A stretch of 62,803 nt of DNA, filler included, from Craspedostauros australis (lineage: Eukaryota), in assembly GCA_030167865.1 (NCBI GenBank). It is 12 parts of 12 records of this genome, joined end to end, with 100 filler letters (N's around TTAATTAATTAA, not from the genome) between each part and the next. Parts side by side here need not be neighbours in the genome. Positions count along the whole stretch, not along the records: positions 39,884 to 51,376 come from JALAGF010006044.1; 11 more parts are not named here. The stretch is one strand, 5' to 3'. Shown one piece after another: positions 24,098 through 59,998 of this stretch (within the stretch, counting starts at the first letter, position 1; each line of letters opens with the position of its first letter). The position numbers and the translations under genes are program-made. The notes below the pieces were generated by a model, which saw nothing but the letters and a program-made list of their open reading frames with translations, did not search any database and was not told the origin of the DNA.

Positions 24098-24834
24098 TCG
24101 CTGCGGAGAGCATGCAGTGGCAACTCATCCATGACGCAGTGTTGACTGCTGACCTGCCAATGTTCCCAGGGATTGTGAACAGAGGATTGCTACACATATG
24201 GGTGAGCATAGCACCTCAGAACATGTCTTGCAATGCAATGCATCGCAAGTTGTGACCATTGTATTCATCGGAGAGAATCCTTGCTGAGGCGTCCGCCCAT
24301 GTGCGAGTGTCGATGGAACCTTGAAGGTAAGATCGCCAGAAGTTTGAAGATTGAAAACGACGCATACTCGAGAGACGCTCCATGCACCTGAAACAAATGC
24401 AATGCCATCTTGGTCACTCCTGCCCCGCAACGTCCGTCCATTCTGCTCGACTCTAGCCTGATGTCTCTCTCTCTCTCTCTCTCTAGTCTGGTGTTTAGAC
24501 TTCGACAGCGATGGACGTGGGGAAACGAATCGCGGCTGGAAAGATCCACAATGAGACCACACAAAACAGATCCGATTCTTGCGTGTCTCTCGTCTCACCA
24601 ATTCGATTCGATTGTGCATCCTTTTCGGTTTGGGTTGGACCATTGATGCCATAGTCGTACGACCTAAGTATATGATACATGTATAATAACTCGCAGGAGC
24701 CACTCATCCACATAGAAGCTGACAGCATCGCCACGGTCTCGCCAGAACCAGTACGAGCTATTCTGGAGCAAGTATCAACAGCAATACCTCCCCGTCCGCG
24801 CATCATACCCACGAGCAACCGATTTTGCGGGACC

Positions 24835-36191: not shown

Positions 36192-37035
36192 TGTTGGCAA
36201 GTTCCGCTCACGGTAGCCTACGATCGTGGAAGATGGTGTTGGTTGATAGTCGTTCGTTTGCTATTTCATTAGTTGGCTACTCCGATCCTCTCGGTGTANN
36301 NNNNNNNNNNNNNNNNNNNNNNNNNNNNNNNNNNNNNNNNNNNNNNNNNNNNNNNNNNNNNNNNNNNNNNNNNNNNNNNNNNNNNNNNNNNNNNNNNNNN
36401 NNNNNNNNNNNNNNNNNNNNNNNNNNNNNNNNNNNNNNNNNNNNNNNNNNNNNNNNNNNNNNNNNNNNNNNNNNNNNNNNNNNNNNNNNNNNNNNNNNNN
36501 NNNNNNNNNNNNNNNNNNNNNNNNNNGACACTCCGTTCGTTCAGTACTGGTTCCTACTCCATGAGTACTTACCATTTGAAGTTCACCTTCTGTATCCATG
36601 ATCTTCATGGATCATCGGATCTTCGCCTCCTGTTCTGACTTGGAGACAGATGTCGACGTGGTGACATGATGACATCCTGTCGACGTCAGTAGGCGTCCTT
36701 CTGCTCTCCAGATGTCACGTTCCATTGGTGATGCAGGAGTCTGTCAGATGATATCGTCATCTAAGGTTTAGTTGGGAAGTACCTTGAGATTCTCTTGGTA
36801 CCATTGATGGATGGACGGACGATCTTCCAATTCTCTCAGAAATCGTCGATTGCAAATTTCCTCTAGAAATCTTGCTCATTTTCGTGTGTTCCATTTCCCC
36901 TGTAATTCTGACGAATCACAGCATACTATCAACACGAATATAGTTATACCGTCCAAGTGCGTATGAGAGAATAACGGGTGAACGATGCACATATACACGT
37001 ACATCTCGACATATACTCACATGTACATCTCGACA
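36192..37035 (-). mobile_element. LTR copy in reverse orientation, with an internal gap
   Basis: TGTTGGCAAG...CATCTCGACA on the plus strand; near-identical to the reverse complement of the 37598 copy. Confidence 0.88.
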
Positions 37036-37597: not shown

Positions 37598-38540
37598 TGT
37601 CGAGATGTACATGTGAGTATATGTCGAGATGTACATGTGAGTATATGTCGAGATGTACGTGTATATGTGCATCGTTCACCCGCTATTCTCTCATACGCAC
37701 TTGGNNNNNNNNNNNNNNNNNNNNNNNNNNNNNNNNNNNNNNNNNNNNNNNNNNACATGTGAGTATATGTCGAGATGTACGTGTATATGTGCATCGTTCA
37801 CCCGCTATTCTCTCATACGCACTTGGACGGTATAACTATATTCGTGTTGATAGTATACTGTGATTCGTCAGAATTGCAGCAGAAATGGAACACACGAAAA
37901 TGAGCAAGATTTCTAGAGGAAATTTGCAATCGACGATTTCTGAGAGAATTGGAAGATCGTCCGTCCATCCATCAATGGTACCAAGAGAATCTCAAGGTAC
38001 TTCCCAACTAAACCTNNNNNNNNNNNNNNNNNNNNNNNNNNNNNNNNNNNNNNNNNNNNNNTGACATCTGGAGAGCAGAAGGACGCCTACTGACGTCGAC
38101 AGGATGTCATCATGTCACCACGTCGACATCTGTCTCCAAGTCAGAGCAAGAGGCAAAGATCCGATGACCGAAGAGGATCAGCATCATGGATACAGAAGGT
38201 GAACTTCAAATGGTAAGTACTCATGGAGTAGGAGCCAGTACTGAATGAACGGAGTGTCAAATGCGGAGTACGCATCGAACACGGAGTATTGTGTAGCACG
38301 AGCACACGATGTTGAGAGAGAGAGAGAGAATACAGAGAGGAGCGAGAGAGCATCTCGCGTACCGACTCATAGTCGGAGACCGAATCTACAAAACAGATTG
38401 AATCACCGAGAGCATTGGGCAAGAGAATGGGCATACACCGAGAGGATCGGAGTAGCCAACTAATGAAATAGCAAACAAACGACTATCAACCAACACCATC
38501 TTCCACGATCGTAGGTTGCCGTGAGCGGAACTTGCCAACA
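37598..38540 (+). mobile_element. 3' LTR preceded by a polypurine tract (AGGAAGGG), abutting a Copia RT
   Basis: The 16-mer ATGCACACAGGAAGGG directly precedes TG here and in the 59982 copy. One extra 24-bp head repeat is present. Confidence 0.88.
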
Positions 38541-39783: not shown

Positions 39784-40906
39784 NNNNNNNNNNNNNNNNN
39801 NNNNNNNNNNNNNNNNNNNNNNNNNNNTTAATTAATTAANNNNNNNNNNNNNNNNNNNNNNNNNNNNNNNNNNNNNNNNNNNNTGGTCGGTTTCGCACGA
39901 GGGATTGTGGAACTTTCACACTTTCTCAGAAATCACGTATTGAGCAAATAAACTGCAATTTTTACGTGCAGTATCTCCGTTTAAGTATCTCGAGGCGACA
40001 AACTCCATTGTCGTAACAGAACGACAATTCCGGCCGATACGTTCATGATATCGTTGCGATGGTACTATCTTATGCTCAGTATTGTTGTCGTTTATTACTA
40101 GTATTACCGCAATAGTACCAAGACATACGCAAAATTGACAAAATTGTTTTCTACAAAATCCCAACAAAACAAGGACAGAAGTGTTCCTTTGATGTGAACG
40201 GCGACACAGCAGTTGGCTGTTGAGATACTTCTGNCGGTAGTATCCGTTTTGGTATCATGTCGTCGGCTGTGACTTTGTGAACACAGTTGTGAGCGAGATT
40301 CTGGGTCTTTGTGTGACACCAGAAAACAACAACAACAACATCGGCATCAAGATCGACAATGGCATCGGTGCTGTCGCCAGGTACAAGTACCCACAGGTCT
40401 GTGTTAGCTAGCAGGATGAGCTCACGCTACAAATGTACACAATACTTGGCACACCGGTCATATGCAACACATGTGCACATCACAGCAAACCAATAGNNAA
40501 AATGACAATGNTGATTACAATGGCNTAAACANGCTGCTGTCGGTCACAGTCACCACTGTGGNCTGCAATATGGGTTGAATTCAGGATTGCAGCTTTNGCA
40601 ACTTCACTGANGGGGCATCTGNTTTGGTGGTGGGCATGCCATATTGGCCGCAGCACAGGACCCACCCACCCATCTATTCATCCATGAAGATCATCCATCC
40701 TTGTACCAGTTCCGGCGATGGCATCCAGGTTGGGATCTTTCCTCTACATTCAATGGGCAGAGATCCTTTGAAAAGTGTATGATTGTTGGTGTTGGAAAGA
40801 GTNNNNNNNNNNNNNNNNNNNNNNNNNNNNNNNNNNNNNNNNNNNNNNNNNNNNNNNNNNNNNNNNNNNNNNNNNNNNNNNNNNNNNNNNNNNNNNNNNN
40901 NNNCTG

Positions 40907-41712
40907 TGTCGAGATGTACATGCGTGTATATGTCAAGATGTACGTGTATATGTGCATCATTCACCTGTTATTCTCTTATTCATGTACAGATGGTACAACT
41001 ACATTCGTGTCAATTGTATACTGTGATTTGTCAGAATCCCAGTGGAAATGGAACACACGAAAATGAGCAGATTTTCTGGAGGAAATTTGCAATCAACGAT
41101 TTCTGAGAGAATCAGGAACATCGTCCGTCCATTCATCAATGGAAACGTATGGTATCGAGCGAAGCTCGATGTACCTCCCAACTAAGCCCCAGATGATGAT
41201 ATCATCTGACAGACCACAGCATCACCAATGGAACGTGACATCTGGAGGAACAGGACGACGACAGCTGACATAGACAGGATGTCATTGTGTCACCACATCA
41301 ACATCTGTCTCCATGTCAGAAGCAGAAGGTGAAGATTTGATGACTGAAGGGCATGGAGATCATGGATACATGAAGAGGAGTTCAAGTGGCAAGCACTCGT
41401 GGAGTAGAAGTCAGTAGTGAACGAATGGAGTGTTGGATGTGGAGTATGCATTGAACACAGAGTATCATGTAGCACGAACATGCAACATTGAGAAGAGAGA
41501 GAATACGAATAGCAGCAAGAGAGCATCTCGCGTACCAACTCATAGTCGGAGACCAATCTACNAAACACAGAGACGCGCCAAGAGCATTGGGCAAGAGAAC
41601 GGAGACACAAAGAGGATCGGAGTGCTCAAGGAATGAAATAGCAAACAAAACAACTATCAACCAACACCGTCTTCCAAGATCGCAAGTTATCCGTCCACGG
41701 AACTTGCCAATA
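40907..41712 (+). mobile_element. Older, decayed LTR copy
   Basis: Homologous to 23293-24097 with many CG>TG/CA changes; terminal CA has become TA. Confidence 0.85.
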
Positions 41713-43779
41713 TGTGTGCTCTGTTCTCTGGATACTCTGGTGTTGCAGATTTGTAGCTTGTTGGTTGTTGCTGATTGCTGATTGCTTTGCAGTAGGTTCA
41801 ATGTTCAATTCTCGATGCCTTGCCTGCTGCTGGTTGCTTTCTCCTGGATCCTTTCCATGGATTTGTTGTTTGTGGCTGCATGCCCAGCTCTCTTCTNGAT
41901 ATGCTTTTCTGGAATCTCTTGGTTGGGTAAACTGTGGATTCTCTGGTTGGGTCAAGTGGTGTGCTGGATGCTCCTCCCTCTCTCTCTCTCTCTTGTAAAT
42001 CATCACTGCCAATTCACTACTGCTTACCAAATGACATCTGGCAAGGATCACTGCTGATGCATTGATAGCTGGTGGTGGCAGAATACTCTGATCGATGCTC
42101 AGCCGTGTGTGAAGTTGTTGGGTGTGATCAGAAGCTCCCCAGCTGCTGTCTGGAGCCGCCCACTCATTGTTGATCGTTGGCAGATGTTTCAGCTCCTGCC
42201 GCATGCTGTGTTCTGATTGGCAAGTTGTTTCAGAATACAGAATGCAGTCTGCATGTTGGATAATGCTGACAAATTCATTGTACATTGGTGTCTGGCAGAT
42301 GCTTCGCTGCATGCTTTGCCTGTTGTTTTTGCATTGGCAATGTGTGGTCTGATGAGATGGTGAAGACAGAGCAAAGGAACAATGTATAAACCATGCATGC
42401 CCACTTGATTGTTGCAAAGGATGATGGTGTCATTGCTGAAACGATCAGTGACGTAAGCATAGCATGCCAAGTCCATGACTTGGTGCACCGCACATCTGCG
42501 ACAGNCAGGAGGTTCTGCAATGAATGACAACTCTGTTGCTTTGCTACAGTGAGGAAATGTGTGACNGATCCCATCAGGTTGTCCACTACAGCTGGGACAG
42601 TCTTTGTTTGGTGTGATGTGAGACAGGATGGAGCATCCCCCAGGTGTTGATACTATCTATCTCTAGAGGCACAGTGGCATGGCATGGCGTGGCAGGGATG
42701 GATAGATGGATGGGTGTTTGTTGAATGCCAAGTCTGGCGTGGCTGAGTATGAGAGGGTGGGAGACTGTTGTGTTGGAGTCTATTTGTTGTTGGGGATTGT
42801 TTGTCGGCATGGCTGGGGTTCTTGGCATGGCATGTTTCTTCTTCCACTCTCGATCCCACTTCCACATGAGCTACATACTTGCTCTGCAGATGAAGTTGAG
42901 TTGGAAGGAAGGGAGGGAGGAGGTAGCGTCAATTGGCAGTGTTGTCAACGAGTTTCTGAATGAGTTGTGTTGAGAGTTGAGCATGGATTGCCACACAAGA
43001 AACCAACGCTCCTCCTCGTTGCCAACAACGCGAATAGACCACAGATCAAAGTACTCAAGTTTTGGCATTATCGTCCTTATTTTTGAACAGTGGCCACTGT
43101 TTTGACAGAAAGAAACAAGAAGAGACAAGAATCATGCGATGATTTGCGTACAAGAGATGCAAAAAGAGAGATCTGGACAATCGAATCAATCATTTTGGTT
43201 CAGATTGGGCAAAAATGCGAAAAGCCATGTTGGTACCATGAGGAAACAAACAGTTTGACGAAACAGTGTGGGAAACAGGAAAGGAAGAAAGCGAATTGTG
43301 ACGTCACATGGGCATTGCAAAGACCTAAATCCCCATGAAAGTGGCTGTCTCCATTGCGTCCAGACAAGTTTCAATAGCGGGGCTCCCCCTGAAATTCGGA
43401 CAGCCCGGCGTGTCCCAGTACCCAAGTTCTGGGGCCACTCGAACCCATCACGAATCATCAATCAAGCAGGCTTTTACATCAGAGTGTTTGACCCGATCGA
43501 CTCAACAGGCTGGATGCACGACCCACGTATGGTACTCAAACAGGCCAATCAACGAACAGATGGCACACTGCCCTTTCCTGACACTAGGCTTAATAGGGGC
43601 AGGCCTACTGGAACTATCAACAACAACAACAACCATGCAAGGCCAACATCAGAAAGTCACAACACAAGCACATAAGATCACAGGAATTCATCAGTCACTG
43701 TCGTCGCATGATCACGGCGCACAGTACTGCATGAAACTTCACTGCTGATCTCCTCTCTTCCTTTTTGGTTTTCCTCGTC

Positions 43780-45930
43780 ATGTCCGGCCTCCAGGACCTC
43801 TCTCGCCGCTTCGCCGACTCCCTCTTCGAGGACGATGGTGGTGGGGGGGACGATGATGCGTTTGCAACACCGCAGAAGGCAGCTTCGGTAACGTTCAACC
43901 TTGGGAAGACGGCTGTCTCCGGTAAGCGTTACAAGCTGTATTGTGTTCCTACGACCGACGACGAGTATGAACGAGCATGTTTCACGATGATTGGGAAGGG
44001 AGAAACCTTCTGCACAGACCCAAGCTGTTCCAAAACACATCAAGGAGTTGCATGGGACCCACCCAAAGGGGAGCTGCACATTGCAAAGACAGCAACAACT
44101 GCATACTTCACACCCAGCCTGCCACTGTCACGTCTGCACGCAGAGCTAGCCAAAAACATGACCGCTGCTTCGTTGTCTCTTGATGATTGGCTTCGTTTCT
44201 TCACTGCTGCCACAGGCATACCACCGGAACTGCCCATTACCACCGAACTCCTTCAGGCAGAATACGAAGACATTGCACAAGCCCACCTTCAGCGCACTCC
44301 TCGCAAAAGCAAGACTCTTTCTGCAATGGAAGATGCTGCAGGCAACCCTGCTTACACCAAACAAGTGAATGATCCAACCGACCTTGAACAACAGGGCACA
44401 CTGAACGATGTCGCCAAGACGCTGTGTTCCGTTGACAACGAAGTAGCCAAAACCTCCAAAACCCTCAACGATACAGTACGCCTCCTCCTCCAAGAACAAC
44501 AAACCAACCATACTGCACACAAGACGGCTGCTCATCGTATCCATGAGGTGGAGTCCAGTCTTGGCAAGCGCGGCCGGAACCAATTCGAAGGTTTTGAGTC
44601 AGTGACTGTCTGGGGCACCCTCGCAACGGTCTTGGACATGATGGCATCATTCGACGACGCGCTCACAGACCCGCCCTCTAGCGAAGATGTACTCGCGTTG
44701 GAGCAGAAGATGATATCCGAGATCGCAGCCGCAAAAACAGAATCTCAAGCGTCTGTGTCTCGTTTGGAATCCTCAACTGTTTCCACGATGTCCCAGCTGT
44801 ACGACCGTTTCAAGGAACTCGCGGCGCGGTCGTCCGGGGGAAGCAATCCTGAGATTCAACGCCTCTCAAACACCGTCGATGCCATGCAAGCACAAGGCAA
44901 CCCCACTGAACGACTGAACCAACTCGAAACCGCGTTCGCACGCATCCAATCAACAACTGATACCACTCGAGTTCGATTTGGAGGTTTGGGTTTCGGTTCC
45001 TTCCCGGAAGCCAGTCTCTGGCTCGACACTGAGTGCCCTGATTTCGATTGTGGCCACTTCGTGGATGCTCATGTGCTTTTCCAACACATCCTGGTTCGGA
45101 TGACTGGCGGAAGCAACCTCAAGATGCTGACAACACTCAAGAAAGCTGGCATTGCTACAGGCAATTTTGCCACAACAGTGGAATCATTTGATCACACCAT
45201 CCCTACCTTCTTCTGCTCCCCTGGTGTAGGCAAGCCCATCGATGTCACGCACTCATTCTTTGACAAGATCCCATCATATGCAGATTGGTCCATCGTGTCC
45301 ACAGGGTACAAGGACAAACTGGAGCTACACTTGCGTGACGTCCGCTTCGACATCGAGTCCTCCATCCGTGATGTTTATGATTATTCATCCCGCCAAGCCA
45401 GCCTCATGCAAGCTGCACTCAGCAGATCCGCGGAGTGGATTCATGGGTTCGTCCGATTCATTGATGACTACTACAACGACCTGAACCGCTCACGCTACAG
45501 CACAGCCAAGGCTTGGCACCTGGTCACCTCGCTGGGTTACCGTCTCATCAGTGAGATCGCCAAGCCTCGTCGAATGGCACCTGGTGCACTGAATGCCGAC
45601 AATCAAGCAAGCAACAACAAAGTCATGTTCTTTGCTATCCTTCGCAGCTTGGATATCATGGAAGAAATAATGGACAAAGGATTTCGTGACCATCCAATTG
45701 TGGCAAACGAACTGGTTCGCTTCCTCGCAAAGAATACCGGTCAAGAAGCCATTGATGTACTGCAACGCAAAATGGCAGCTGCAGAAGACGTGATCAAACA
45801 GCAAGCGAAGGATTTGAATGCACAAGAGAAATTAATCACCACATTGAAGAGCACCGCGAAAACCAATGGAGATGAACTCAAGGCGCTCAAATCGCGCATC
45901 ACGAAGCTGGAACAGAAGGCACACAAATGA
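43780..45930 (+). CDS. ORF1, gag-like protein (716 aa)
   Basis: N-terminal C-x10-C-x4-C-x3-H (CFTMIGKGETFCTDPSCSKTH), coiled-coil-like C-terminus, and position upstream of pol. Confidence 0.75.
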   Translation: MSGLQDLSRRFADSLFEDDGGGGDDDAFATPQKAASVTFNLGKTAVSGKRYKLYCVPTTDDEYERACFTMIGKGETFCTDPSCSKTHQGVAWDPPKGELHIAKTATTAYFTPSLPLSRLHAELAKNMTAASLSLDDWLRFFTAATGIPPELPITTELLQAEYEDIAQAHLQRTPRKSKTLSAMEDAAGNPAYTKQVNDPTDLEQQGTLNDVAKTLCSVDNEVAKTSKTLNDTVRLLLQEQQTNHTAHKTAAHRIHEVESSLGKRGRNQFEGFESVTVWGTLATVLDMMASFDDALTDPPSSEDVLALEQKMISEIAAAKTESQASVSRLESSTVSTMSQLYDRFKELAARSSGGSNPEIQRLSNTVDAMQAQGNPTERLNQLETAFARIQSTTDTTRVRFGGLGFGSFPEASLWLDTECPDFDCGHFVDAHVLFQHILVRMTGGSNLKMLTTLKKAGIATGNFATTVESFDHTIPTFFCSPGVGKPIDVTHSFFDKIPSYADWSIVSTGYKDKLELHLRDVRFDIESSIRDVYDYSSRQASLMQAALSRSAEWIHGFVRFIDDYYNDLNRSRYSTAKAWHLVTSLGYRLISEIAKPRRMAPGALNADNQASNNKVMFFAILRSLDIMEEIMDKGFRDHPIVANELVRFLAKNTGQEAIDVLQRKMAAAEDVIKQQAKDLNAQEKLITTLKSTAKTNGDELKALKSRITKLEQKAHK

Positions 45931-45936
45931 CAATTA
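45928..45936 (+). promoter_or_regulatory. Putative programmed stop-codon readthrough signal TGA-CAATTA (CARYYA)
   Basis: It is the only stop between in-frame ORF1 and ORF2, and the hexamer equals the TMV-type readthrough context. Confidence 0.7.
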
Positions 45937-48900
45937 AACAGTAGCAGTGAAGTGAATGAACCCACCTCTCTGTCTGCGGCTTCTTTGTCTTTTGTTTCGG
46001 ACCGTTCTCTTCTCCAACCCCCAGCACAAATGCATATCGTGCTGGCATACGAACACTTTCCTTTCTGGCTCTTATCTATCCAGAAGGTTTGTGTGTGTCG
46101 CATCGAGCTGATGGTACCTCAGGGTGCTCCATTGTCACATGGCATCGAACTTGCCTGGCGGCCACTCTTCCAGGCCTGCGTGGAATACTTCGGAGATCTC
46201 ATCCAACCGTGGAAGGGGCCCACTGCCTCCTATCATTTGGCTCTTGTCACTGGTTCACAGCTCTTCATCGAGCAACATCGAACGCGGTGCGATGCCTCCC
46301 AGTTCATTGGAGTGATTGACAACCATGTCATTGATCGAAGACGAACTCACTACAGCGATGAGTGGCACCAGATTCAGCATCCACGTGTTGGGGGAGCCAC
46401 AACTTTCACCACCTGGTGGCTTGCAACCCCAGCACTCAACCCGATGCAATTCTCTCAACACAATGATGTCCAGTCTTTGCTGCACCGGGGGTTCCCTGTG
46501 AAAATCGATAGGATGAAAACAGTGGCGGCTGTCACTCATCGCCTCCGTATTGGCCAATGGTCACCTTCGGTGGTCACCACTTCATATTACTCTCGAACGA
46601 TAGCAGGGACCAGACGTCTCACATCCATTGAGCTCAGCACCATTTTCAACATCCCCAACATCTACGCCCGTGTCAGGGTACCTCCGTCTCTCTACCCCTT
46701 TCTACCCATTGGCATACTCAATGCATTCATGGCAATCGCTGCACGTCAACCCATGATGCACCAACCACTCGTTCACCGAAGCGCAACGTCAGTGAACAAC
46801 ACCAACAAAGACGTTTGGTTGCCTTCCATACAACGATGGCTACCGAGTGCATGGAACAACATTGGCTGGGTTTCGACAAAGGCGGCGAAAGGCGATGATG
46901 CTGACATCCATTTCTCTCTATGGGATGATCGCATTCGACTCGTCCTACCTGATGCAATGCCATTGGTTCCGCTGCTCAGGGGTCTACTTCTACGATATTA
47001 CAGGCGTTCTGTATGGAAGGAGATGCGGCAACACCTTCGGGTCTCTTTTGGTCCACGCTGGTGGGTGTTGCTCATGTACATAAAACATCGGCGACACCAC
47101 AATCGGTCAAGTCATGGACGCTTTCTGCAAGCACTACAGTCCATGGAACTTGATGGGTATGATTCTGATGCCACTGTCGCGACAACTAACCTACAGAGCT
47201 GTTCTGTGACACATCTACAGCACCAGGAGCGAACCATGGGCAAGCAGATGATGGCTGCCACGACCGTCTGCGCGCGCATACTCATGCAACTCGCCACGGC
47301 CTCGTGGTGGAGGTGGACGCGTGGGTCGTCGCTCCTATTCTGGCGGTGGTCAGCGTATGCGGAAATAGCACGTGAGGGCATACCTCCATGTATCACAGGT
47401 ACCTTGCCACACTACCGCCCAGCACCAAAACGCTTCACCCTGTCCGACTACGCGCTTATGCTTCCCAAGATGAAAAAGATGTTGGACAACGGGTATATGG
47501 TTGTTCCAAGGCTGCAGCGAAGCATCCGCAGTTGCATTGATTACTTCCATGTGCCGAAGGATACAGACATCCGACCGGTGTACAATGGCACCAGCTGTGG
47601 GCTTAATGAGGTGTTGTGGTCTCCCAAGTTCTGGCTCCCAATGGCCAAAACTGCGGTGCGGGCTATGGACTTCGGCTTCGTCTCGTCCGACCTGGACATC
47701 GGCGAAATGTTCCACAATTTCCCGCTGCACGCCGACCTCAAAGCGTGGTCGGGTGTCGATCTCTCCAACTTCGCTGCTGATCTCCCTGACTACACAACTC
47801 CTCATCGACGTCAATTCCACGTTGTTTGGGACCGGTGCTGGATGGGAGCTCGCACAAGTCCGTACACGGCTGTTCGTTTCTACTATCTGGCAGAAGACTT
47901 CGTGTTGGGCGATCGACGCAACACCCACAATGCCTTTCGATGGGATCAGCTTCGGCTCAATCTCCCTGGGTCATCGCAGTTTGATCCATCCAGGCCACGC
48001 GTCATCAAGTTCAATACTCGCACTCAACGTATGGCTACGCAAATGCTGGTCTATGTTGACGATGTCAGAATCGTTTCGACAGACATTAATGCGGCGTGGC
48101 TGGCCACTCATCAGGTCTCCACGCGACTGCAGCATCTCGGAATACAGGATGCTCTCCGTAAGCGCCGCCCTCCATCCGCCGTGCCTGGTGAATGGATTGG
48201 CTGTGTATTTCGGGCCTCCACGGATCAAGTCTCGGTGACGGTCTCCCTGGCCAAGTGGGAGAAAGCGCGTGCACTCATCCAGCAATTGTGTCAGCAGTTG
48301 CGTTCATCAGATGCTGGAGTCGTCAACTACAAGGATCTTGAGCGCACACGCGGTTTTATGTGCCATCTCTCGATGACGTTCCCGCAGGTTGCGGTGTTCC
48401 TCAAGGGGTTTCATTTGACTCTGGCTTCTATTTGGCCTGGTCGCGACGAACAAGGGTGGCGCATTCCTTCTCGTTCTCTTGCTGCGGCTCTTCACCATTG
48501 TGATGACGGAGGTCCTTCGCCACCGAATATACCGGAGACCATTCTTCCGGTCGCCCGGTTGCACGATGATCTTCGTGCGCTGACGCAGCTCTTCGCTCTG
48601 GAGGCTCCGCCCTGCATTTCGCACCGTGCTCGCACGATGCTTCAGGTGATTTATGGGTTTGTGGACGCCTCTGGGTCCGGTTTTGGGAGTTCTTTTGCCC
48701 TAACCAGCGGCATTTCTTGCCGTCTGGGCTCATGGGGAAGGGACACGGAGAGTCTCAGCTCCAATTTTCGCGAGTTTTCCAATCTCGTTGAATCCTTGGA
48801 GGAGGAGGGCAAACGTGGCAGTCTTCGTGACGCAGTCGTCTACGTCTTCACTGACAATTCCACGGTGGAACGGGCTTGCTACAAGGTCAACACCAGCAGT

Positions 48901-49824
48901 CGTCTGCTCTTCGACCTTGTGGTTCGTCTCAAGCTTGTGGAGTTTCGACATGGCTGTCAGCTTCATGTCTACCATTGCGCTGGCGATCGCATGATACGAC
49001 AGGGCACTGACGGCCTCTCTCGAGGCGATGTACAAGGAGTTACACAGGGTGATGGCAGTCTTCTCTCTCACATCCCCACACACCAGTCAGCAATCGAGAG
49101 GTGTCCGTCTCTGCTGCAGTGGATGCGTTCATGGTTACCTGCTACCCCAGTCGTACTTAGTCCCACAGACTGGTACGAACGGGGTCACGACATCAACGGT
49201 TTCGTGACAGGTCCTCGCGGTCTCTCCCAACCACTTATCTCATCTGGAACATACATCTGGCACCCTCCTCCTGCGGCTGCGGATGTGGCACTTGAGGAAC
49301 TACGCAAGGCAACGCTCAAACGACAGCGATCCATGCATGTGTTCGTTTGTCCACGTCTGATGACGTGTGAATGGATGCGTCAAGCTCACAAAGCTTTTGA
49401 TCTCATTTTGCGCATTCCTCCCAATCATTCCTTTTGGCCACCGAACATGTTCGAACCATGCATTCTGGGTATTGCTTTTCCTTTCTTACCATATCGTCCA
49501 TGGGAACTCAGGGCCACACCGAAGCTGCTCCAGCTGGAGCGGGACGTGTCGTCGATGTTCCAAAATTCGGACGTGGACGGAGGGCATCTTCTGCACGAAT
49601 TTCTATTGGAGCATCGCAGGTTTTCCAGCCTGCAAAAGCATGTGGTGTGGAGGATGTTATACTTCCGAGAACCGCCTTGGATTTCATCAACATCATCTCC
49701 AACCAACAGACGCAAGCGGAAGCGATCCCAACGAACGCCTCGAGATGAACTGGAACATGAAGCACACCAACAAACACTTGTTCAACCAAGGGCGAAACGG
49801 AGATCATCTGCTGATTCCATTTGA
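45931..49824 (+). CDS. ORF2, pol: reverse transcriptase + RNase H + degenerate methyltransferase-like region
   Basis: RT motifs VPK..DIRPVYN, DLDIGEMFHNF, WMG..SPY and YVDD (48052-48063). RNase H motifs FVDASGSGFG, NFRE, FTDN and DGLSRG. Downstream YIWHPPP...VFVCP....W. First ATG is at 46030. Confidence 0.93.
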   Translation, partial: QLNSSSEVNEPTSLSAASLSFVSDRSLLQPPAQMHIVLAYEHFPFWLLSIQKVCVCRIELMVPQGAPLSHGIELAWRPLFQACVEYFGDLIQPWKGPTASYHLALVTGSQLFIEQHRTRCDASQFIGVIDNHVIDRRRTHYSDEWHQIQHPRVGGATTFTTWWLATPALNPMQFSQHNDVQSLLHRGFPVKIDRMKTVAAVTHRLRIGQWSPSVVTTSYYSRTIAGTRRLTSIELSTIFNIPNIYARVRVPPSLYPFLPIGILNAFMAIAARQPMMHQPLVHRSATSVNNTNKDVWLPSIQRWLPSAWNNIGWVSTKAAKGDDADIHFSLWDDRIRLVLPDAMPLVPLLRGLLLRYYRRSVWKEMRQHLRVSFGPRWWVLLMYIKHRRHHNRSSHGRFLQALQSMELDGYDSDATVATTNLQSCSVTHLQHQERTMGKQMMAATTVCARILMQLATASWWRWTRGSSLLFWRWSAYAEIAREGIPPCITGTLPHYRPAPKRFTLSDYALMLPKMKKMLDNGYMVVPRLQRSIRSCIDYFHVPKDTDIRPVYNGTSCGLNEVLWSPKFWLPMAKTAVRAMDFGFVSSDLDIGEMFHNFPLHADLKAWSGVDLSNFAADLPDYTTPHRRQFHVVWDRCWMGARTSPYTAVRFYYLAEDFVLGDRRNTHNAFRWDQLRLNLPGSSQFDPSRPRVIKFNTRTQRMATQMLVYVDDVRIVSTDINAAWLATHQVSTRLQHLGIQDALRKRRPPSAVPGEWIGCVFRASTDQVSVTVSLAKWEKARALIQQLCQQLRSSDAGVVNYKDLERTRGFMCHLSMTFPQVAVFLKGFHLTLASIWPGRDEQGWRIPSRSLAAALHHCDDGGPSPPNIPETILPVARLHDDLRALTQLFALEAPPCISHRARTMLQVIYGFVDASGSGFGSSFALTSGISCRLGSWGRDTESLSSNFREFSNLVESLEEEGKRGSLRDAVVYVFTDNSTVERACYKVNTSSRLLFDLVVRLKLVEFRHGCQLHVYHCAGDRMIRQGTDGLSRGDVQGVTQGDGSLLSHIPTHQSAIERCPSLLQWMRSWLPATPVVLSPTDWYERGHDINGFVTGPRGLSQPLISSGTYIWHPPPAAADVALEELRKATLKRQRSMHVFVCPRLMTCEWMRQAHKAFDLILRIPPNHSFWPPNMFEPCILGIAFPFLPYRPWELRATPKLLQLERDVSSMFQNSDVDGGHLLHEFLLEHRRFSSLQKHVVWRMLYFREPPWISSTSSPTNRRKRKRSQRTPRDELEHEAHQQTLVQPRAKRRSSADSI

Positions 49825-51049
49825 GTGCGACACATGTGTGTTCATCAAACTGAAATCACGTCGTCCTATCCCACAAGATCACACTGATGAACGTCTACTC
49901 CAAGCCATTCGCAGAGTTAACCTTGATGCTTTCTGGAGCAGAGCGACCACTACAGTGAAAGCCAATGCGGGTCGAGCACGACGCATGATCCACATGAGCC
50001 AAGGCCTGGGGTTGGAGGGTCCATTTGAAGCGCATGGACCATTACCTCCGTTCGATCATTGCGGCTACCAAGTCGCAATCTTGATGGTATTGATGTCGCT
50101 GAAGCCTGGACAACACTCGAAAACGCATACACAGTATGATACTATCCGCAAGGCACGAGCAACCTATTCAAATCACATCAGAGCATCCGCTGCATCCACT
50201 CAACATTCCTTGAGCATGGGTGATCAAAAGGGTCGGTACCAACGTATCACCTCTGATCCATGCGGTTCTTTCTGGTTCACCAGGTTCAACGAAGGCTGCA
50301 GGTATCGTATGGGACAGGATTGGCGACCAAACAAGGGTTTCTCTACAGACCTTGTGTTGGCCATATTGGACATTGCACAGGAACGTCTGGATGAGTGCGA
50401 ACCGTTGGACGCAGATCAACATCGGTGGGCCGCGTTTATGGCATACGCAACGCTGTCATACGTTCTCTCTCTGCGAGGGACGGAAGCTCAAATGCTTGAC
50501 TTGGGAGCTACGCTCAAGGAATGGTCACGTCCCAAACCAAAAGACCATTTCACTATCGTGTTACAAGGCAAATTCAAAGGGGAACATCAGTCATATCAAC
50601 ACATCATCCCGGTGTCTACCAACACTAAGTCTGGCATCAAGGTGCAACACATCGTTGCAGAGCTTCTTCATATAAAAAACAAGGCACAGCAACGTTTCGG
50701 ACCGGCAATCTCTTCCAAGGACGGAGTTCTGTATACTCTCAAGGAATTGGATGACGCACTCCACGACATTTTGGAGAGCATCTGGGAATCCAATCGCGCA
50801 CTCTTTCCTCCCGACATCACTCAGTCTTCCAAATTGCGAGAAAACTACCATTGTTTTCGCTCTTTTCGACGAGCCTCCGACACTCGAGCTCTGGATCAAA
50901 AGGTAAGCGAATCTGACATCAAATTGGTCAATCGTTGGGAAAAACGAGGACCAGGAGGTGGGCGTCGAAACGAGACAGACATGAGGTTTCACTACGCTCA
51001 GTTTGACCTTCTTGTCCAGCCGTTTCTGCGCTACACCGCTGCCATGTAA
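49367..51049 (+). CDS. ORF3, tyrosine recombinase, overlapping the pol 3' end in the +1 frame
   Basis: SLRGTE (R), GKFKGE (K), RSFRR, VNRW and HYAQ (Y), plus an N-terminal Cys cluster. 49367 is GTG; the first ATG is at 49640. Confidence 0.88.
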   Translation: MNGCVKLTKLLISFCAFLPIIPFGHRTCSNHAFWVLLFLSYHIVHGNSGPHRSCSSWSGTCRRCSKIRTWTEGIFCTNFYWSIAGFPACKSMWCGGCYTSENRLGFHQHHLQPTDASGSDPNERLEMNWNMKHTNKHLFNQGRNGDHLLIPFECDTCVFIKLKSRRPIPQDHTDERLLQAIRRVNLDAFWSRATTTVKANAGRARRMIHMSQGLGLEGPFEAHGPLPPFDHCGYQVAILMVLMSLKPGQHSKTHTQYDTIRKARATYSNHIRASAASTQHSLSMGDQKGRYQRITSDPCGSFWFTRFNEGCRYRMGQDWRPNKGFSTDLVLAILDIAQERLDECEPLDADQHRWAAFMAYATLSYVLSLRGTEAQMLDLGATLKEWSRPKPKDHFTIVLQGKFKGEHQSYQHIIPVSTNTKSGIKVQHIVAELLHIKNKAQQRFGPAISSKDGVLYTLKELDDALHDILESIWESNRALFPPDITQSSKLRENYHCFRSFRRASDTRALDQKVSESDIKLVNRWEKRGPGGGRRNETDMRFHYAQFDLLVQPFLRYTAAM

Positions 51050-51731
51050 TGGGCGGTACTATTGGGGATCAGGAAGTGCATAACATGGAGTTGGGATAGA
51101 TTCGTCAAAAGCCGGTACAACTGGTGGACTGGTTCGATGCCGGAAGGCTGCGGTCATACTCAGAGTAGCATTCGCTACATGGGGACCAAAACCTACACGC
51201 CGAACTCTAGTCAACATACGACATCGCATCCAGCTCCAATAACAGCATGAACTGACATGGTATTACACATGCAACGCATGCTACACACCAACCCAATAGT
51301 GCACATATCTTGTGATATACTCTACTACTGACTTTCTGCACTACCATTTGCTCTTCAGCTGTATGATCGACCACCGNNNNNNNNNNNNNNNNNNNNNNNN
51401 NNNNNNNNNNNNNNNNNNNNTTAATTAATTAANNNNNNNNNNNNNNNNNNNNNNNNNNNNNNNNNNNNNNNNNNNNCTGCATCTTGTTGTTTTTTGGCTT
51501 TTTTCATTCTGGTCCACGGATCCTTCGCCTCTTCATGCCATTGTACACATTCGACAGCTACAGAGCCAGCATGTTCCCCTCTCTTCGAATGGGGGGTGCG
51601 GATGTTGTTGCGACTCTCTTGCCAGTTGACTTGTTGCATTCCAACAGCAGGATTCATCTAGGTACGACAAGCAAACGTTGTACATTCTGACTCCACTATT
51701 TATGGTATTCTCGTTTGCCTTGCTGAGGCGG

Positions 51732-54573
51732 TTAACTTGCATCACCACGGCTCTGTCGTGCAGCCCTTCCACGGGTCCTCATCCCAGTAGTAGTCGGCTT
51801 TCTTCGTGCTTTCTCTTTGTCATTATGCTGGTGCTGTGATTGTTGGTCTCCTATTGCTTGTTCTGCCATTGTGGGATTATTCGTGGCTGCTTCCGCTGTT
51901 GTCGTTGGTGCTGTTGCGACCTGCGGTGGCTGTTGGCTACTTCCTTCTGCTGTCTCTCCTCTTGCATCATCTTTTCGGACCGATTCAGTTGATGCCAAAG
52001 TTGCACTTGGCGATGGCATCTGGACTCCACCTGTTTCGGCTCCTCTTGTTGACACCAGTGATGGCGGTGATGGCAAGATCACCACCTCTGTTTGGGCATC
52101 TGTTCGTGTTGTATGCTGCTTACCGCCTGCCTGGGCTGGTAGGATCCGTTGAGGTGATCCCACTACAGCAATCACCTCTTCTGGTGCCCGTCCTCCTCCA
52201 CTGTCCAAGACTTCCGAAATTCTGGCTGCTGGTGATCGTGGTGGTGGCATTGTCTGCATCTCCGTTCGGGAATCTGTTCCTGTTGTTTGCTGCTCACCGC
52301 CTGCCTGGGCTGGTAGGATCCGTTGAGGTGATCCCACTACAGCAATCACCTCTTCTGGTGCCCGTCCTCCTCCACTGTCCAAGACTTCCAAATTTCTGGC
52401 TGCTGGTGATCGTGGTGGTGGCATTGTCTGCACCTCCGTTCGTGTTCTGTGGTGGGCATTGCCTGCCTGGGCTGGTAGGATCCGTTGGGGTGATCCTGCT
52501 GTTGCCATCTCGTCTGGCCATGCCCGTCCTCCTCCACTGTCCAAGACTTCCGAACGTCTGGCTGCTGGTGATTGTGGTGGTGGCATTGTCTGTGTCTCCG
52601 TTCGGGCATCTGTTCGTGTTGTTTGCTGTGCACCGCCTGCCTGGGCTGGTAGGATCCGTTCGAGCGATGGGTGAATGCGACTGCTCTGGCTTCTTTCGTC
52701 CATAGCAGAGCGACGGTATGTGTACTGGTCTGCGCTGACTCTCACATCTGCTGCTGCTGGATCTTTACCACCTGATCTGCTTGCCAAGTGGCCAGCAGCA
52801 TCAACCAATGCCGCATCNNNNNNNNNNNNNNNNNNNNNNNNNNNNNNNNNNNNNNNNNNNNNNNNNNGATCCCACTACAGCAATCACCTCTTCTGGTGCC
52901 CGTCCTCCTCCACTGTCCAAGACTTCCAAACTTCTGGCTGCTGGTGATCGTGGTGGTGGCATTGTCTGCATCTCCGTTCGTGTTCTGTGGTGGGCATTGC
53001 CTGCCTGGGCTGGTAGGATCCGTTGGGGTGATCCTGCTGTTGCCATCTCGTCTGGCCATGCCCGTCCTCCTCCACTGTCCAAGACTTCCGAACGTCTGGC
53101 TGCTGGTGATTGTGGTGGTGGCATTGTCTGTGTCTCCGTTCGGGCATCTGTTCGTGTTGTTTGCTGTGCACCGCCTGCCTGGGCTGGTAGGATCCGTTCG
53201 AGCGATGGGTGAATGCGACTGCTCTGGCTTCTTTCGTCCATAGCAGAGCGACGGTATGTGTACTGGTCTGCGCTGACTCTCACATCTGCTGCTGCTGGAT
53301 CTTTACCACCTGATCTGCTTGCCAAGTGGCCAGCAGCATCAACCAATGCCGCATCAAGGGAGATATCCTCATGCTCCCACCATCTGTTGGCATTTTGGGA
53401 GACGTTCACATTGATGTTGGGGCCACCTGCTGGGGCCATTTCGATGGCAAGGCGGGGCTTCTTTCTTGGTCCACTCACTTCATTGTTCTCTGCCAACATT
53501 CTGGGTCTCTGTTGCAAGGCGTCTTCCCGTGCCCGGATTATGCGCTTTTCCTCCACCTTGAGAGCCAGCTCAGCTTCCATCATCTCAAGTGCTACCCGCT
53601 TGATTTCAATGCGGTCTCGTATTATGTCGGTACTGTCCGTAAATACCGACATGGTGTCGTCAGTGGCAGTCCGGGTTGCTGTCTGATGACTGATTGCAGA
53701 AACCGTGGGCGTGGCTTGTTGGCCATGCAGCCTTGGCTGTGTTGCTGATGGTAGCTGTCCGGTGTTGTTGCTTGCAAGGCTTTGTGCTGCTGGGATGTGG
53801 CTGTGGCCTCCTGGCTTGGTGGTGGGTGTGGGTATTGCAGGTGTTGTGCTGTAGCCAGCAGCATTTCCTGTGGTGTCCACTGTCTTGCTCACCGTGCTCG
53901 TCATTGTGTTGTTGATATTGTGGGTGGTAATGTCAGTGGTGCAGCTTTGTGTGTTAGTGACTTCATCACGGACACCCGGATGGCTTCCATCACCATCTGC
54001 AAAGCCGAGACCATGGCATACAGAAAAGTGCCGGGTCACACCCACGTTGGTTGCTTCCTTCAAACGTACCGTTATTGTGAGGATGTTGTGAGTGGCGCCA
54101 TCATTGTCCTTCACAGCATGANNNNNNNNNNNNNNNNNNNNNNNNNNNNNNNNNNNNNNNNNNNNNNNNNNNNNNNNNNNNNNNNNNNNNNNNNNNNNNN
54201 NNNNNNNNNNNNNNNNNNNNNNNGCAAAGTCTTCATTCCGAAACTGCTGCACATGGGCAGCACGTTTCTGTCCTGCATCAGAGAATGGATGGCCCAACTT
54301 GTCGATTAGAATGTCCACGATGCTTCCATCTTGACCGAAAGCTGATGGTGGCTTGTACAGCAGCACCAGGAACATCCGAGGTACTCCGCCCACCTTCCGA
54401 CTTTCAATGGTCACTGTTGCGTCATTCCTTGTAGTACATGCAGGCAGGTGGAAATCCACCCCAACCATGCGATATCGTTCACCACGAGGTCTCCACACTT
54501 GAGTTGTGTGAAAGACCTCGATGGTGCGGCTCAGCTTCCGAAACTTGGCAACTCGTTGGGGCTCTGATAGCTC
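51732..54573 (-). CDS. Large hypothetical, probably transposon-borne ORF with ~57-61 aa tandem repeats; 5'-partial and partly duplicated across a gap
   Basis: The frame is open from the gap at 54574. Repeats read QTMPPPRSPAAR.SEVLDSGGGRA....GSPQRILPAQAG. The 3' end and flank are homologous to the element at 39031-39783. Confidence 0.6.
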
Positions 54574-54743
54574 ANNNNNNNNNNNNNNNNNNNNNNNNNN
54601 NNNNNNNNNNNNNNNNNNTTAATTAATTAANNNNNNNNNNNNNNNNNNNNNNNNNNNNNNNNNNNNNNNNNNNNTGATAGTGCTGGGTACACATTGTCCG
54701 AGAGCTCTCAGCCTCCATTGGAGCCAGCACATTGTCACTTGTC

Positions 54744-57052
54744 TTACACGCGAGGAGAATCCTCTTCATCCTCTTCCTTTCCTTCGGGATCCTCCATGCC
54801 CTTGTTGGAGATACCGTCGCCTTCCGAACCCTCATCGCCGTCCTTGACTGCTACTCCAGCCGCGGCGGCAGCTCGGAGATCGGTCTGAGAGAATCGATGG
54901 GAGAATTGACGGGACAAGCGTTCCGCCATCAAAGCGCGGTCATTGCTGGCGGCGTCGTACTCGTCATGGCACTGCATGCGAAGAAAGAGTGAACGGCAAC
55001 AACACGCATGTCATCGAGAGCATTGAGAGCATCGCAGAATGCGTTGGCGGGTGCAAGTGGCAACAGGCAAAGCAAAAACAGGAATCAGGGGGGTTGGCTC
55101 GTGAGAAAGATGGTGTTCCAGATCATCCACGATGAACATGACGAACTCGAACTTTATCTGGAAACACAGCGTTGCATGACCCCGCCATGCCTCGCCGTAC
55201 CGTCCAAACACAAGGCAACACAAGACAACTCAGAAGACCATCGAACGACCTCAACCTCAGCCCGGTCTGATTTTGCCAGATCACACACACCACAGCAAAG
55301 CACAGCACAGCACGACACAACACACCGAAACGCATCATATCGAACTCACCTGACCCATGAAGGCACAAAACTCCAAAAAGTCAACATATCCATTTCCGTC
55401 CGCATCCATGACCGCCCACAACGCCTCGAAGTCGTTGCGGTTCATCTCCACGACCTTGCCAGAGCTCAAGAACTCCCACATGCCCTCCTTCGTGATGTTG
55501 CCCACAGCGCTGGCACGACGGTTGCCCTTGTCGGCTGCTGTGGATTGAGCATCGATCTTCTGGAACTCCCGAGCCAGCGCGGCGGCATCCATGCGCTTGG
55601 CTGGGAGGCTGATGCTCATGGTCTGTGCGACGCGCGCAGCGAACACAGCGCGGTATCTCTTTGCCTGCTGCTTGTTGTAGATGATGACTGCAGCAGCGAC
55701 CACGATGAGGAAGAGAAGGACGCCACCGATGGTGAAGCCGGCGATGACGCCTGCCTTGACGGGGGTGGTTGGCTCATCGTATGGGTTGGTGGCACAGTTG
55801 GGATCGTACTGCAGGACAAGGGAAAGTAAGGGAAGTCGGCGATGAGTAACGAATGATTCGTGACGAATGGATGCAAGGAAACCGAGAGGCGTCCACATGA
55901 ATCAAGTCGAACAAAGTGAGAGAAAGAGTACATACAACGCATATGGACACCGATGAAACCACTCCATCTGCTTCTGCGCGGTTCGCATTGCTTTCGCGGC
56001 AGAGCTTACCTGGCACCACTGTTCCTCCGTGGGGAACATTCCAGACGCAGATGGACCAGTCATGGGGACAACTGGGCGCGCTGGCACCGGGACCGCAGAA
56101 GCTTCGTAAGAGGCCTTGATCTGATCGACGAATTCTTGCTCCGTCACACGCTTCTGGCGACAAGCCTGGAAGAATACGAGCTCGGAATTGTTATAGAACG
56201 AGACCATCTCGTGTGCATTGTCGCAAGTGGCATCAGTGCAGGTGATTACGGCGATGACATTTGTGCCTGCGGAGAACGTCGCAAGACCTTGCGTTACGAC
56301 CGTATTGTTTCCAATCGAGTACGTGATGGTCGGTTCCAAGCTGTCGACGGTTCCATCCGGACCAGCGATGTTCTGTGCGGATGGCAACGTGACAACCGTC
56401 CCGTCAAGCTCGAAGGTTGACGTGCCATAGATATCCACGGCCTGCACTAACCCAGGGTTGGTGCTTCCAGGTGGTGCTTTGGACACTCTGTAACGGTGGT
56501 TGAAGGCCCTGGTGCCGTCGACGGTGTAATTGTTGAAGATCTTGTAAGGGAAGGACTGAAGGGCAATTGGACCGAATCCAGGAAGGACCCCTCTGCGGAC
56601 TTCCATCGGCTGCCCGTCCGGCCCGTATGCAAACATGTCGCACATGTAGTATCCGGTGAAGAGAGCCTGGAAGCAATGATTGAAGTGGTTGTCGAAGCAC
56701 GGATGTATGCATGCATGGATTGATGGAGAAAGTACAATCACCCAAAGCGATGACAATGGCAGCAAGGCAAGACGCAAAAGGTTAGAGCGGATCATGTCTC
56801 CTCACAGCAAGCGACGGATATGGAGGACCGGGACACTCAGTGGCGATACCATTTCCACTGTCGCAAACGCACCTTGACTTTGTTTTGCTCAATGATATCA
56901 TAATTGAGGCCCGACTTGTAACGCTTGTCAGCATCGGAGAGGCATGGTTCGCGCCATGGATCGCCGCACTTGCCATCTCCTGCTGCAGTCTTCGTGAGGA
57001 TGCTCAACACGAGCGCAACCAGGCAAACGAGGTTGGTTTGGGAGATCTTCAT
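54744..57052 (-). CDS. Type I single-pass membrane protein with a cytosolic EF-hand; exons 57052-56873, 56666-56010, 55808-55350 and 54971-54744
   Basis: Signal peptide MKISQTNLVCLVALVLSIL; three phase-0 GT..CAG introns join the ORF pieces in frame; TM GVIAGFTIGGVLLFLIVVAAAVIIY; EF loop DADGNGYVDFLE. Confidence 0.85.
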
Positions 57053-59248: not shown

Positions 59249-59998
59249 GTTGATAGTCGTCTGTTTGCTATTTCATTACTTGGCTACTCCGATCCTCTCG
59301 GTGTACGCCGTTCTCTCGCCCGATGCTCTTGGCGCTTCAATCTGTTTCGTAGATTCAGTCTCCGACTATGAGTCGGTACGCGAGATCCTCTCTCGCTCCT
59401 CTCTGTATTCTCTCTCTCTATATCGTGTGCTCGTGCTACACGATACTTCGTGTTCGATGCGCACTCCGCATTCGACACTCTGTTCATTCAGTACTGGTTC
59501 CTACTCCATGAGTACTTGCCATTTGAAGTTCACCTTCAGTATCCATGATCTTCATGGGTCATCGTATCTTTGCCTCCTGCTCTGACTTGGAGACAGCTGT
59601 CGACGTGGTGACATGTTGACATCCTGTCAACGTCAGTAGGTGTCCTTCTGCTCTCCAGATGTCACGTTTCATTGGTGATGCTGTAGTCTGTCAGATGATA
59701 TTGTCATCTGAGGTTTAGTTGGGAAGTACCTCGAGATTCTCTTGGTACCATTGATGCATGGACGGACGATCTTCTGATTCTCCCAGAAATCGTTATTTGC
59801 AAATTTCCTCCAGAAATCTTGCCCCTTTTCGTGTGTTCCGCTTCCTCTGTAATTCTGACGAATCACAGCATACTATCGACACGAGTGTAGTTATACCGTC
59901 CAAGTGCGTATGAGAGAATAATGGGTGAATGATGCACATATACACGTACATCTTGACATATACTCACATGTACATCTCGACACCCTTCCTGTGTGCAT
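59249..59998 (-). mobile_element. 3' LTR (59982 to 59249, truncated) with its polypurine tract
   Basis: Reverse complement of the 37598 copy, including ATGCACACAGGAAGGG. Confidence 0.88.

Follow-up and report, generated by a model that had tools for sequence, protein, structure and literature searches.

The stretch of DNA analyzed here (the window, 62,803 nt of joined sequence from Craspedostauros australis) carries a retrotransposon with three open reading frames (ORFs) on the plus strand, namely ORF1, pol (ORF2), and a tyrosine recombinase (YR) gene (ORF3). ORF1 and pol lie in one frame and are separated by a single TGA at 45928-45930. We suggest that this TGA is probably a programmed leaky stop through which an ORF1-pol fusion would be made, and that the arrangement is ancestral to the family. 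The codons after the TGA are CAA TTA AAC AGT, and the same frame then stays open for 1297 codons, so that a readthrough product would have 716 + 1 + 1297 = 2014 residues. An open frame of 1297 codons right behind an in-frame stop is far beyond chance. The original prediction had described this layout, and the coordinates of ORF1 and pol, the shared frame, the lone TGA, the CAATTA that follows it and the 2014-residue length of the fusion were all recomputed and matched.

The arrangement is conserved among distant relatives. When metagenome contigs were scanned with the pol alignment, 80 loci were obtained from 434 confirmed relatives; 21 of these had no ORF1 match, two had ORF1 and ORF2 that were not adjacent, and 57 had ORF1 directly upstream of ORF2. 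The frame of ORF1 is kept by ORF2 in 47 of the 57 adjacent loci, with exactly one stop before the first pol homology 99-1872 nt downstream. This single stop is TGA in 46 of the 47 in-frame relatives and TAG in the other, and a sense codon occupies the junction in none of the 57. ORF2 is in the -1 frame in nine loci, one of which (L038) nearly duplicates an in-frame locus and is apparently broken, and in the +1 frame in one (L004), where the frame changes within ORF1. In a FastTree phylogeny of pol, the in-frame stop is found in every deep clade, the long branch of the window copy included, and at least three changes between the in-frame and the -1 state are needed.

The spacer that separates the first conserved pol block from the stop measures 64-164 codons in the relatives and is always free of stops in the in-frame group; because its length varies so widely, many insertions and deletions must all have kept the frame. 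No ATG occurs between the stop and this block in 15 of the 33 loci in which the block was placed by pattern (a doubtful pattern match, L008, is outside the 15). We also compared substitutions on both sides of the stop in 21 close pairs. In the 150 nt before the stop, the ratio of nonsynonymous to synonymous differences per site (pN/pS) was 0.16, with pS of 0.635 and 146/84/468 differences at the three codon positions, whereas in the first 150 nt after it pN/pS was 0.70, with pS of 0.39 and 304/284/329 differences. The post-stop ratio, together with the lower pS, points to a linker peptide under weak constraint, on which a constraint on the nucleotide sequence itself is superimposed. The spacer thus appears to be translated in the ORF1 frame in the relatives.

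The choice of stop codon is also uneven. TGA was found in 47 of the 48 in-frame junctions (the window and 47 relatives), compared with one of eight in the -1 group (Fisher p 3e-7; the lineages are not independent). At the ends of the other ORFs, TGA closes 46 of 76 ORF2s and 25 of 61 ORF3s, and it is therefore an ordinary terminator in these hosts.

The sequences around the junction of the relatives contain a hairpin soon after the TGA, a loop that is complementary to a segment 20-35 nt further on, and then a second hairpin; the main stem begins 7-10 nt after the stop. Two alignments were scored for these helices. In the first (A2; nine loci, gap-free, five helices, two of them loop-to-downstream), 97.1% of the cells were paired, compared with 29-44% when the partners were slid; 17 of the 34 pairs had changed on both sides, and none of 500 shuffles reached the score. 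The second (A5) was an untouched MAFFT alignment of 19 other, more diverse loci with three helices, in which 76.9% of the cells were paired (33-45% with slid partners), 15 of 18 pairs had changed on both sides, and none of 500 shuffles reached the covariation score; some of its rows are visibly out of register, and these count against the structure. We conclude from the covariation that the relatives carry hairpins and loop-to-downstream helices that would form pseudoknots. A scan for H-type pseudoknots, in which the 48 junctions were compared with 1440 in-frame control positions inside ORFs (30 per junction), gave a mean of -16.1 kcal/mol at the junctions vs -8.6 at the controls (Mann-Whitney p 5e-13, the junctions not being independent), and 23 of the 48 junctions fell within the best tenth of their own 30 controls. 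A covariance model built from the nine-locus clade (R1) re-found its own nine junctions and, weakly, 11 more ORF1-pol junctions, with one off-target row.

A conserved peptide (roughly P-H-S-S ... D-V) is also encoded 60-110 nt past the stop in two clades (L008-L033 and L012-L031), by the second hairpin together with the 3′ strand of the loop-to-downstream helix. The RNA reading is favored at this overlap because the changes there are compensatory.

Besides the apparently broken L038, the -1 group is made up of eight lineages (L047, L053, L058, L067, L068, L071, L075, and L080). The frame of ORF2 opens 34-49 nt ahead of the ORF1 stop in seven of the eight (there is no overlap in L053), and the ORF1 stop is TAG or TAA in seven of the eight. 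An in-phase canonical X_XXY_YYZ heptamer was found in six, mostly directly before the ORF1 stop; five of these were found by script, and that of L053 was recognized by eye in the same printout. No canonical heptamer is present in L058 or L080. The L053 copy may be damaged, as its ORF2 frame is blocked downstream. Strong GC-rich hairpins lie 3′ of the slippery heptamers, and one stem is common to L075 and L080, with compensatory differences between the two. Since the in-frame UGA alternates with a -1 slippery site, the family seems to conserve the translation of pol as an extension of ORF1.

Considering the conserved layout, the open spacer, the missing ATGs, the pseudoknots, and the -1 heptamers, we suggest that pol is most likely made as an ORF1-pol fusion by recoding. 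Most ribosomes would terminate at the TGA and yield an ORF1 protein of 716 residues, while a minority would insert an amino acid, stay in frame, and yield the 2014-residue fusion, so that readthrough would provide a low-ratio supply of reverse transcriptase (RT) and RNase H. In most relatives, the stimulator would be the hairpin 7-10 nt after the UGA, the loop of which would pair further 3′ to give an H-type pseudoknot, often followed by the second hairpin, and a few lineages may have swapped the stop and pseudoknot for -1 frameshifting. The single-stop layout would then be the ancestral state of a large family of tyrosine-recombinase (DIRS-like) retrotransposons, most of which is undescribed. 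Ribosomal readthrough itself, its efficiency, the inserted residue, and the signal active in the window copy are what we infer from these comparisons.

The signal in the window copy might differ from that of its relatives. Stop-CARYYA is the tobamovirus-type readthrough context, and the TGA and CAATTA of the window copy match it fully, as was emphasized in the original prediction. However, the hexamer is present in only one of the 48 in-frame junctions, that of the window, and as it is missing from all 47 in-frame relatives, it is not the signal of the family; conservation of TGA-CAATTA was judged at the distance of the closest relative, which is 46% identical in pol. What the relatives have instead is the covarying pseudoknot 7-10 nt after the TGA. 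The proposal of a gag-pol fusion made by readthrough therefore stands in its first part, programmed recoding into a fusion being the best reading of the layout found in 47 of 57 loci, and is not supported for CARYYA as the conserved signal (1/48). The hexamer is left as a candidate signal in the window alone. An imperfect 12-bp hairpin also lies behind the stop of the window copy; the 63-nt fold has a minimum free energy of -17.8 kcal/mol (z -2.55, with 3 of 200 shuffles as good) and ranks among the lowest 5% when set against 181 GC-matched windows of the element, and among the lowest 16% when all 1994 are counted. CAATTA, this modest hairpin, or both may raise the leakiness of the stop in the window copy.

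Several observations weigh against this interpretation. CAATTA was noticed post hoc, and a chance match is expected at about 1 in 512 sites, or in about 9% of cases for at least one match in 48 junctions. At the window junction, the 103-nt fold has a z of only -0.26, the best pseudoknot is at background level (47% of its own controls score as low), and the covariance model R1 found no match in the window. The first in-frame ATG of the window's ORF2 lies right ahead of the first conserved pol block, and some ATG is present within the spacer in 18 of the 33 relatives. The relatives themselves are just 30-46% identical in pol and are not phylogenetically independent; most come from a small number of metagenomes, and the pol rows of two pairs are identical. 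A further caution comes from Tca2 (pCal), a Ty1/copia element of Candida albicans. In the accessible part of its description, Tca2, which has gag, UGA, and pol in one frame and a candidate 3′ pseudoknot, makes pol from its full-length RNA, but the UGA with this candidate pseudoknot gave no readthrough in a Saccharomyces cerevisiae reporter, and the junction held a minor promoter (PMC2194720). As far as that account goes, the element described here is like Tca2 in having ORF1, UGA, and pol in one frame and, in the relatives, a candidate 3′ pseudoknot; the evidence here is comparative only, yet broader, since it includes covariation, variable in-frame spacers, and missing ATGs (PMC2194720).

These observations bear most directly on the possibility that pol is translated alone from the ATG at 46030, through a subgenomic or internally promoted RNA, an entry resembling that at an internal ribosome entry site, or reinitiation, in which case the shared frame would be irrelevant in the window copy. 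The position of this ATG and the lack of a detectable pseudoknot at the window junction would both be expected if this were so. However, an independent start leaves unexplained why the frame is the same in 47 of the 57 loci, why a spacer of variable length acquires no second stop, and why the junction stop is TGA in 46 of 47 cases. Nor does it account for the 15 of 33 relatives that are free of ATG before the conserved block, or for the covarying structure 7-10 nt after the stop in the relatives. Reinitiation after an ORF of 716 codons is, moreover, not expected in eukaryotic translation. The Tca2 junction, with its minor promoter and no readthrough seen in the yeast reporter, offers a precedent in the accessible text of that study (PMC2194720), and we consider an independent start of pol unlikely, though it is the strongest of the alternatives.

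An intron spanning the stop might also be spliced out, which would join ORF1 to pol with no recoding. ORF3 also lacks an ATG of its own before its conserved start, and RNA processing in the family is thus conceivable. However, splicing creates no need for an in-frame stretch that is open from the codon after the stop, as it is in 47 loci; it would not be expected to prefer TGA over other stops, and it does not call for a pseudoknot at ribosome-spacing distance. We therefore regard splicing across the stop as very improbable.

The window holds one copy only, in a draft scaffold piece, and the TGA could in principle have arisen within a once continuous ORF1-pol frame, by a private nonsense mutation or through an assembly error, in a copy that is now dead. 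This is contradicted by the relatives, since 47 share the stop and none of the 57 has a sense codon in its place. ORF1 proteins were also sought among 1.84 billion representatives, which gave 829 relatives at E ≤ 0.001. The longest of the best 150 has 956 aa, and the full-length relatives stop within a few residues of the end of the window's ORF1; in one example, residues 42-713 of the query are aligned with residues 64-739 of a protein of 739 aa. No fused ORF1-pol protein of >1253 aa was present among the 1873 candidates scored (1254-3580 aa), which is weak evidence. The three ORFs of the window copy are moreover intact across 7.3 kb. A private origin of the stop is thus highly improbable, and the original view that it belongs to the element is borne out by the same-frame single stop of the relatives and by the common end of their ORF1 proteins.

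Decoding of the UGA by rule, as selenocysteine directed by a selenocysteine insertion sequence (SECIS) or as a sense codon in a variant host code, is similarly improbable: structured RNA right after a UGA is known in some selenoprotein mRNAs, and selenoprotein-coding retroelements have reportedly been found, but the TGA occurs here once per about 2000 codons, also ends the window's ORF2 and 46 of 76 ORF2s, and sits in a linker that is poorly conserved, the -1 lineages manage without UGA, no Rfam family, SECIS included, was found at gathering scores in the window and nine loci, and a search across the whole element at E ≤ 5 gave no SECIS and just three chance-level rows (E 3.6-4.3).

Leaky stops that set the ratio of gag to pol are textbook knowledge for gammaretroviruses and a few long terminal repeat (LTR) elements. 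The gag-pol readthrough signal of murine leukaemia virus, a gammaretrovirus, consists of the stop codon, a spacer of about 8 nt, and an H-type pseudoknot. The element described here resembles it in having one in-frame stop between the structural ORF and pol and, in the relatives, a hairpin 7-10 nt past the stop with a loop that pairs downstream with compensatory changes; by analogy, a low ratio of fusion to ORF1 protein would be expected. It differs in being a tyrosine-recombinase retrotransposon in which protease and DDE integrase were not detected, in using UGA almost throughout, and in being known here from its sequence alone. In addition, two consecutive knotted hairpins are supported in one clade, and the window copy is without such a knot. 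The likeness to tobamoviruses, in contrast, is confined to the window junction, as the hexamer is found in none of the 47 in-frame relatives. Programmed -1 frameshifting at gag-pol junctions is known in retroviruses and LTR elements; the eight -1 relatives, of which seven have the 34-49 nt overlap and six an in-phase heptamer followed by hairpins, resemble these systems, whereas the window copy is in frame and would not use frameshifting.

Among tyrosine-recombinase retrotransposons, the DIRS1-like, PAT, and Ngaro elements are the closest in content. In the accessible parts of their descriptions, they share with the family described here a gag-like ORF, RT and RNase H, a tyrosine recombinase, and a long overlap of the pol and recombinase ORFs; protease and DDE integrase were likewise not detected (PMC3266345, PMC3783388, PMC6681497). 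They differ in that the family has the order ORF1, pol, YR, large extra domains, and a unit of 8-9 kb, compared with a mean of about 5 kb (PMC3266345, as far as its text was available). The accessible text of the three papers uses the words frameshift and overlap, and stop codon, readthrough, and read-through appear nowhere in it (PMC3266345, PMC3783388, PMC6681497). An ALOG-type DIRS1-like retroposon of about 9 kb has been described from Ectocarpus and marine animals (PMC3537659). According to the available portion of that account, it resembles the present element in its size of about 9 kb, in a zinc-binding motif in ORF1, in having RT and RNase H with a further domain, in its marine hosts, and in the Cys clusters, zinc-ribbon-like, that lie ahead of the recombinase; unlike it, the 16 ORF3 proteins examined here have no ALOG, FCS zinc-finger, or integrase domain by Pfam, and a readthrough junction is not described in that portion (PMC3537659).

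In the accessible DIRS-order literature that was searched, tyrosine-recombinase retrotransposons are presented only with separate or overlapping ORFs. The searchable full-text literature, from which subscription journals are absent, yielded no description of a readthrough junction in elements of this kind, and a prior mention is possible. The case would thus be one of a well-known kind of recoding in an element class where it has apparently not been described. If it is true, the conserved UGA and the covarying pseudoknots would extend the readthrough strategy to a third major class of retroelements, and the relatives would supply natural test constructs, rich in compensatory mutations, for readthrough in marine protists, where recoding is almost unexplored. 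They would also include lineages that switch among readthrough, -1 frameshifting, and possibly a hexamer context. In annotations of these elements, ORF1 and pol would have to be joined into a single recoded gene, rather than being called a pseudogene or two separate genes. More speculatively, the element may belong to a large and all but undescribed 8-9 kb tyrosine-recombinase lineage of marine protists that expresses all its genes through two recodings on one RNA, UGA readthrough with one or two covarying pseudoknots and a +1 entry into the recombinase, with the first signal swapped at least three times for -1 frameshifting and, in the lineage of the window copy, for CAATTA; we regard this wider scheme as possible and hold it only tentatively.

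The coordinates of the element and of the features at its junction are collected in Table 1. The element is contained in a single piece of the window (39884-51376). ORF2 is in the same frame as ORF1 and ORF3 is +1 relative to ORF2, the order is ORF1, pol, YR, and the unit is 8-9 kb.

Table 1. Features of the retrotransposon and of its ORF1-pol junction, in window coordinates
Feature	Position	Strand	Description
ORF1	43780..45927	+	ATG start, 716 codons; frame open stop-to-stop from 43735
In-frame TGA	45928..45930	+	Between ORF1 and ORF2; proposed leaky (recoded) stop
CAATTA hexamer	45931..45936	+	Directly 3′ of the stop; fits the CARYYA consensus
Linker from stop to first ATG	45931..46029	+	33 codons, open in the ORF1 frame
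Imperfect 12-bp hairpin	45941..45977	+	Starts 10 nt after the stop; outer 5-bp helix of 45929-45933 with 45985-45989
First in-frame ATG of ORF2	46030..46032	+	Rival start; directly before the first conserved pol block
ORF2 (pol)	45931..49824	+	1297 codons (45931-49821) and TGA at 49822-49824
Reverse-transcriptase core	47686..48147	+	ORF2 residues 586-739; Pfam RVT_1
RNase H-like region	48643..49026	+	ORF2 residues ~905-1032; invariant acidic D912, E948, D975, D1027
ORF3	49364..51049	+	+1 frame vs ORF2, 461-nt overlap; Cys-rich N-terminus, then tyrosine recombinase
Cys-rich segment of ORF3	49541..49660	+	Conserved; starts ~100 nt upstream of the first ATG of the frame (49640)
Tyrosine-recombinase DNA-binding and catalytic domains	49997..51046	+	Last 350 residues of ORF3; AF2 model, pLDDT 79.9

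The ORF1 protein, as modeled with AF2 (pLDDT 76), consists of a small N-terminal beta domain, long coiled coils, and a helical C-terminal half that ends in a long helix. C67, C78, C83, and H87, which lie in the small beta domain before the coiled coils, are invariant across 32 ORF1 relatives, and residues 67-87 are, by this pattern, a putative zinc-binding motif. Pfam assigned no family to ORF1. Foldseek with the whole-protein model, in which single domains were not folded apart, found no capsid-like match at E ≤ 0.001, and a wide search with ORF1 (VIA) returned solely long-helix or coiled-coil rows (Z ≤ 7.1). Because there is no capsid-like match, the term gag is a label from position only.

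The pol protein contains, in order, a conserved N-terminal domain without assigned function, RT, an RNase H-like region, and a conserved C-terminal domain; the last of these, after RNase H, has 260 residues and no assigned family. The RVT_1 match of ORF2 has an E value of 0.0016 and 18.6 bits, under the cut-off of 29.6 bits. RVT_1 was found in seven of the 19 aligned pol relatives, where it was the sole Pfam family, and the columns of D710 and D711 are invariant in the pol alignment. The segment of residues ~905-1032, which has no family match, we take to be RNase H from its motif pattern. At least 166 relatives of pol were found at E ≤ 0.001 among the 8000 candidates scored. They have about 1250-1350 aa, are 30-46% identical, and share conserved blocks from about residue 40 to 1245; the cluster names of five NCBI-sourced relatives are all "hypothetical protein". 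The language-model neighbors of pol in the Atlas are RVT_1 clusters, with Dam in 11-19% of the members, and Pfam found no Dam/MT domain in any of the 19 pol proteins. A scan of viral contigs with the pol alignment gave 48 pattern matches and no relatives.

That the element is a tyrosine-recombinase retrotransposon, as the original prediction held, is established by the recombinase fold of ORF3, its conserved Arg, Lys, Arg, and Tyr columns, and the adjoining RT in ORF2. The model of the last 350 residues of ORF3 was built with 23 relatives, and its top matches in the PDB by Foldseek are XerH, Cre, lambda integrase, and Tn1549 integrase (E 1e-4, probability 1.00). R160, K194, R288, and R291 are fully conserved in the 24-row alignment, and Y333 almost fully. 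A profile search of PDB sequences with ORF3 gave two chance-level rows only (E about 0.5). Pfam found no integrase or protease family in the window proteins, 19 pol proteins, and 16 ORF3 proteins, and none of the 16 ORF3 proteins had an ALOG, FCS, or integrase family at E ≤ 1, although divergence could mask a relationship.

ORF3 is in the +1 frame of ORF2 in all 77 cases, with an open overlap of 191-689 nt. In several relatives, just 30-51 nt, free of ATG, lie between the upstream stop of the ORF3 frame and the conserved motif. As the conserved start precedes the first ATG, entry into the recombinase frame seems to need either splicing or a further recoding event. The conserved start of ORF3 is preceded in many relatives by a pyrimidine-rich run that ends in AG, but this run encodes a conserved peptide as well.

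A search of 40000-55000 gave no terminal repeats, and 327 nt of the scaffold piece remain past ORF3. The relatives have direct repeats or tandem units beyond the power of the assembly to resolve. Head-to-tail units with a period of 8113 occur in L051 (ORF1 at 875 and 8988) and with a period of 9197 in L027, where 149-448 equals 9346-9645; ORF3 followed by the next ORF1, or head-to-tail units, were also seen in L045, L052, L056, L057, and L078. Such patterns could reflect tandem arrays, circular forms, or direct terminal repeats of great length, which the assembly cannot separate. The 127-nt end repeats of L033 resemble assembly k-mer overlaps.

The window is composed of about 12 small scaffolds joined by runs of N around TTAATTAATTAA as linkers and contains many more internal N gaps, and since separate scaffolds were joined, the adjacency of neighboring pieces has no biological meaning. 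No second copy of the element was found in the window by blastn or tblastn. A repeat of about 700 nt (41001-41713) lies 2 kb upstream of ORF1 and has copies in other pieces of the window, including 23387-24098 (86%), 59249-59888 (80%), 37840-38538 (75%), and 36528-36939 (81%). Direct repeats of about 174 nt and about 300 nt, with copies 83-100% alike, are present in the next scaffold piece at 51994-53206. Other pieces carry long intron-free ORFs (3205-5121, 6364-7548, 24676-27861, and 27962-29407) that are ordinary host genes; an Atlas look-up with a neighboring glycosyl hydrolase returned bacterial clusters only. The four ORFs encode an F-box/FIST protein, a GT4 glycosyltransferase, a family-3 glycosyl hydrolase with an Fn3-like domain, and a dephospho-CoA kinase.

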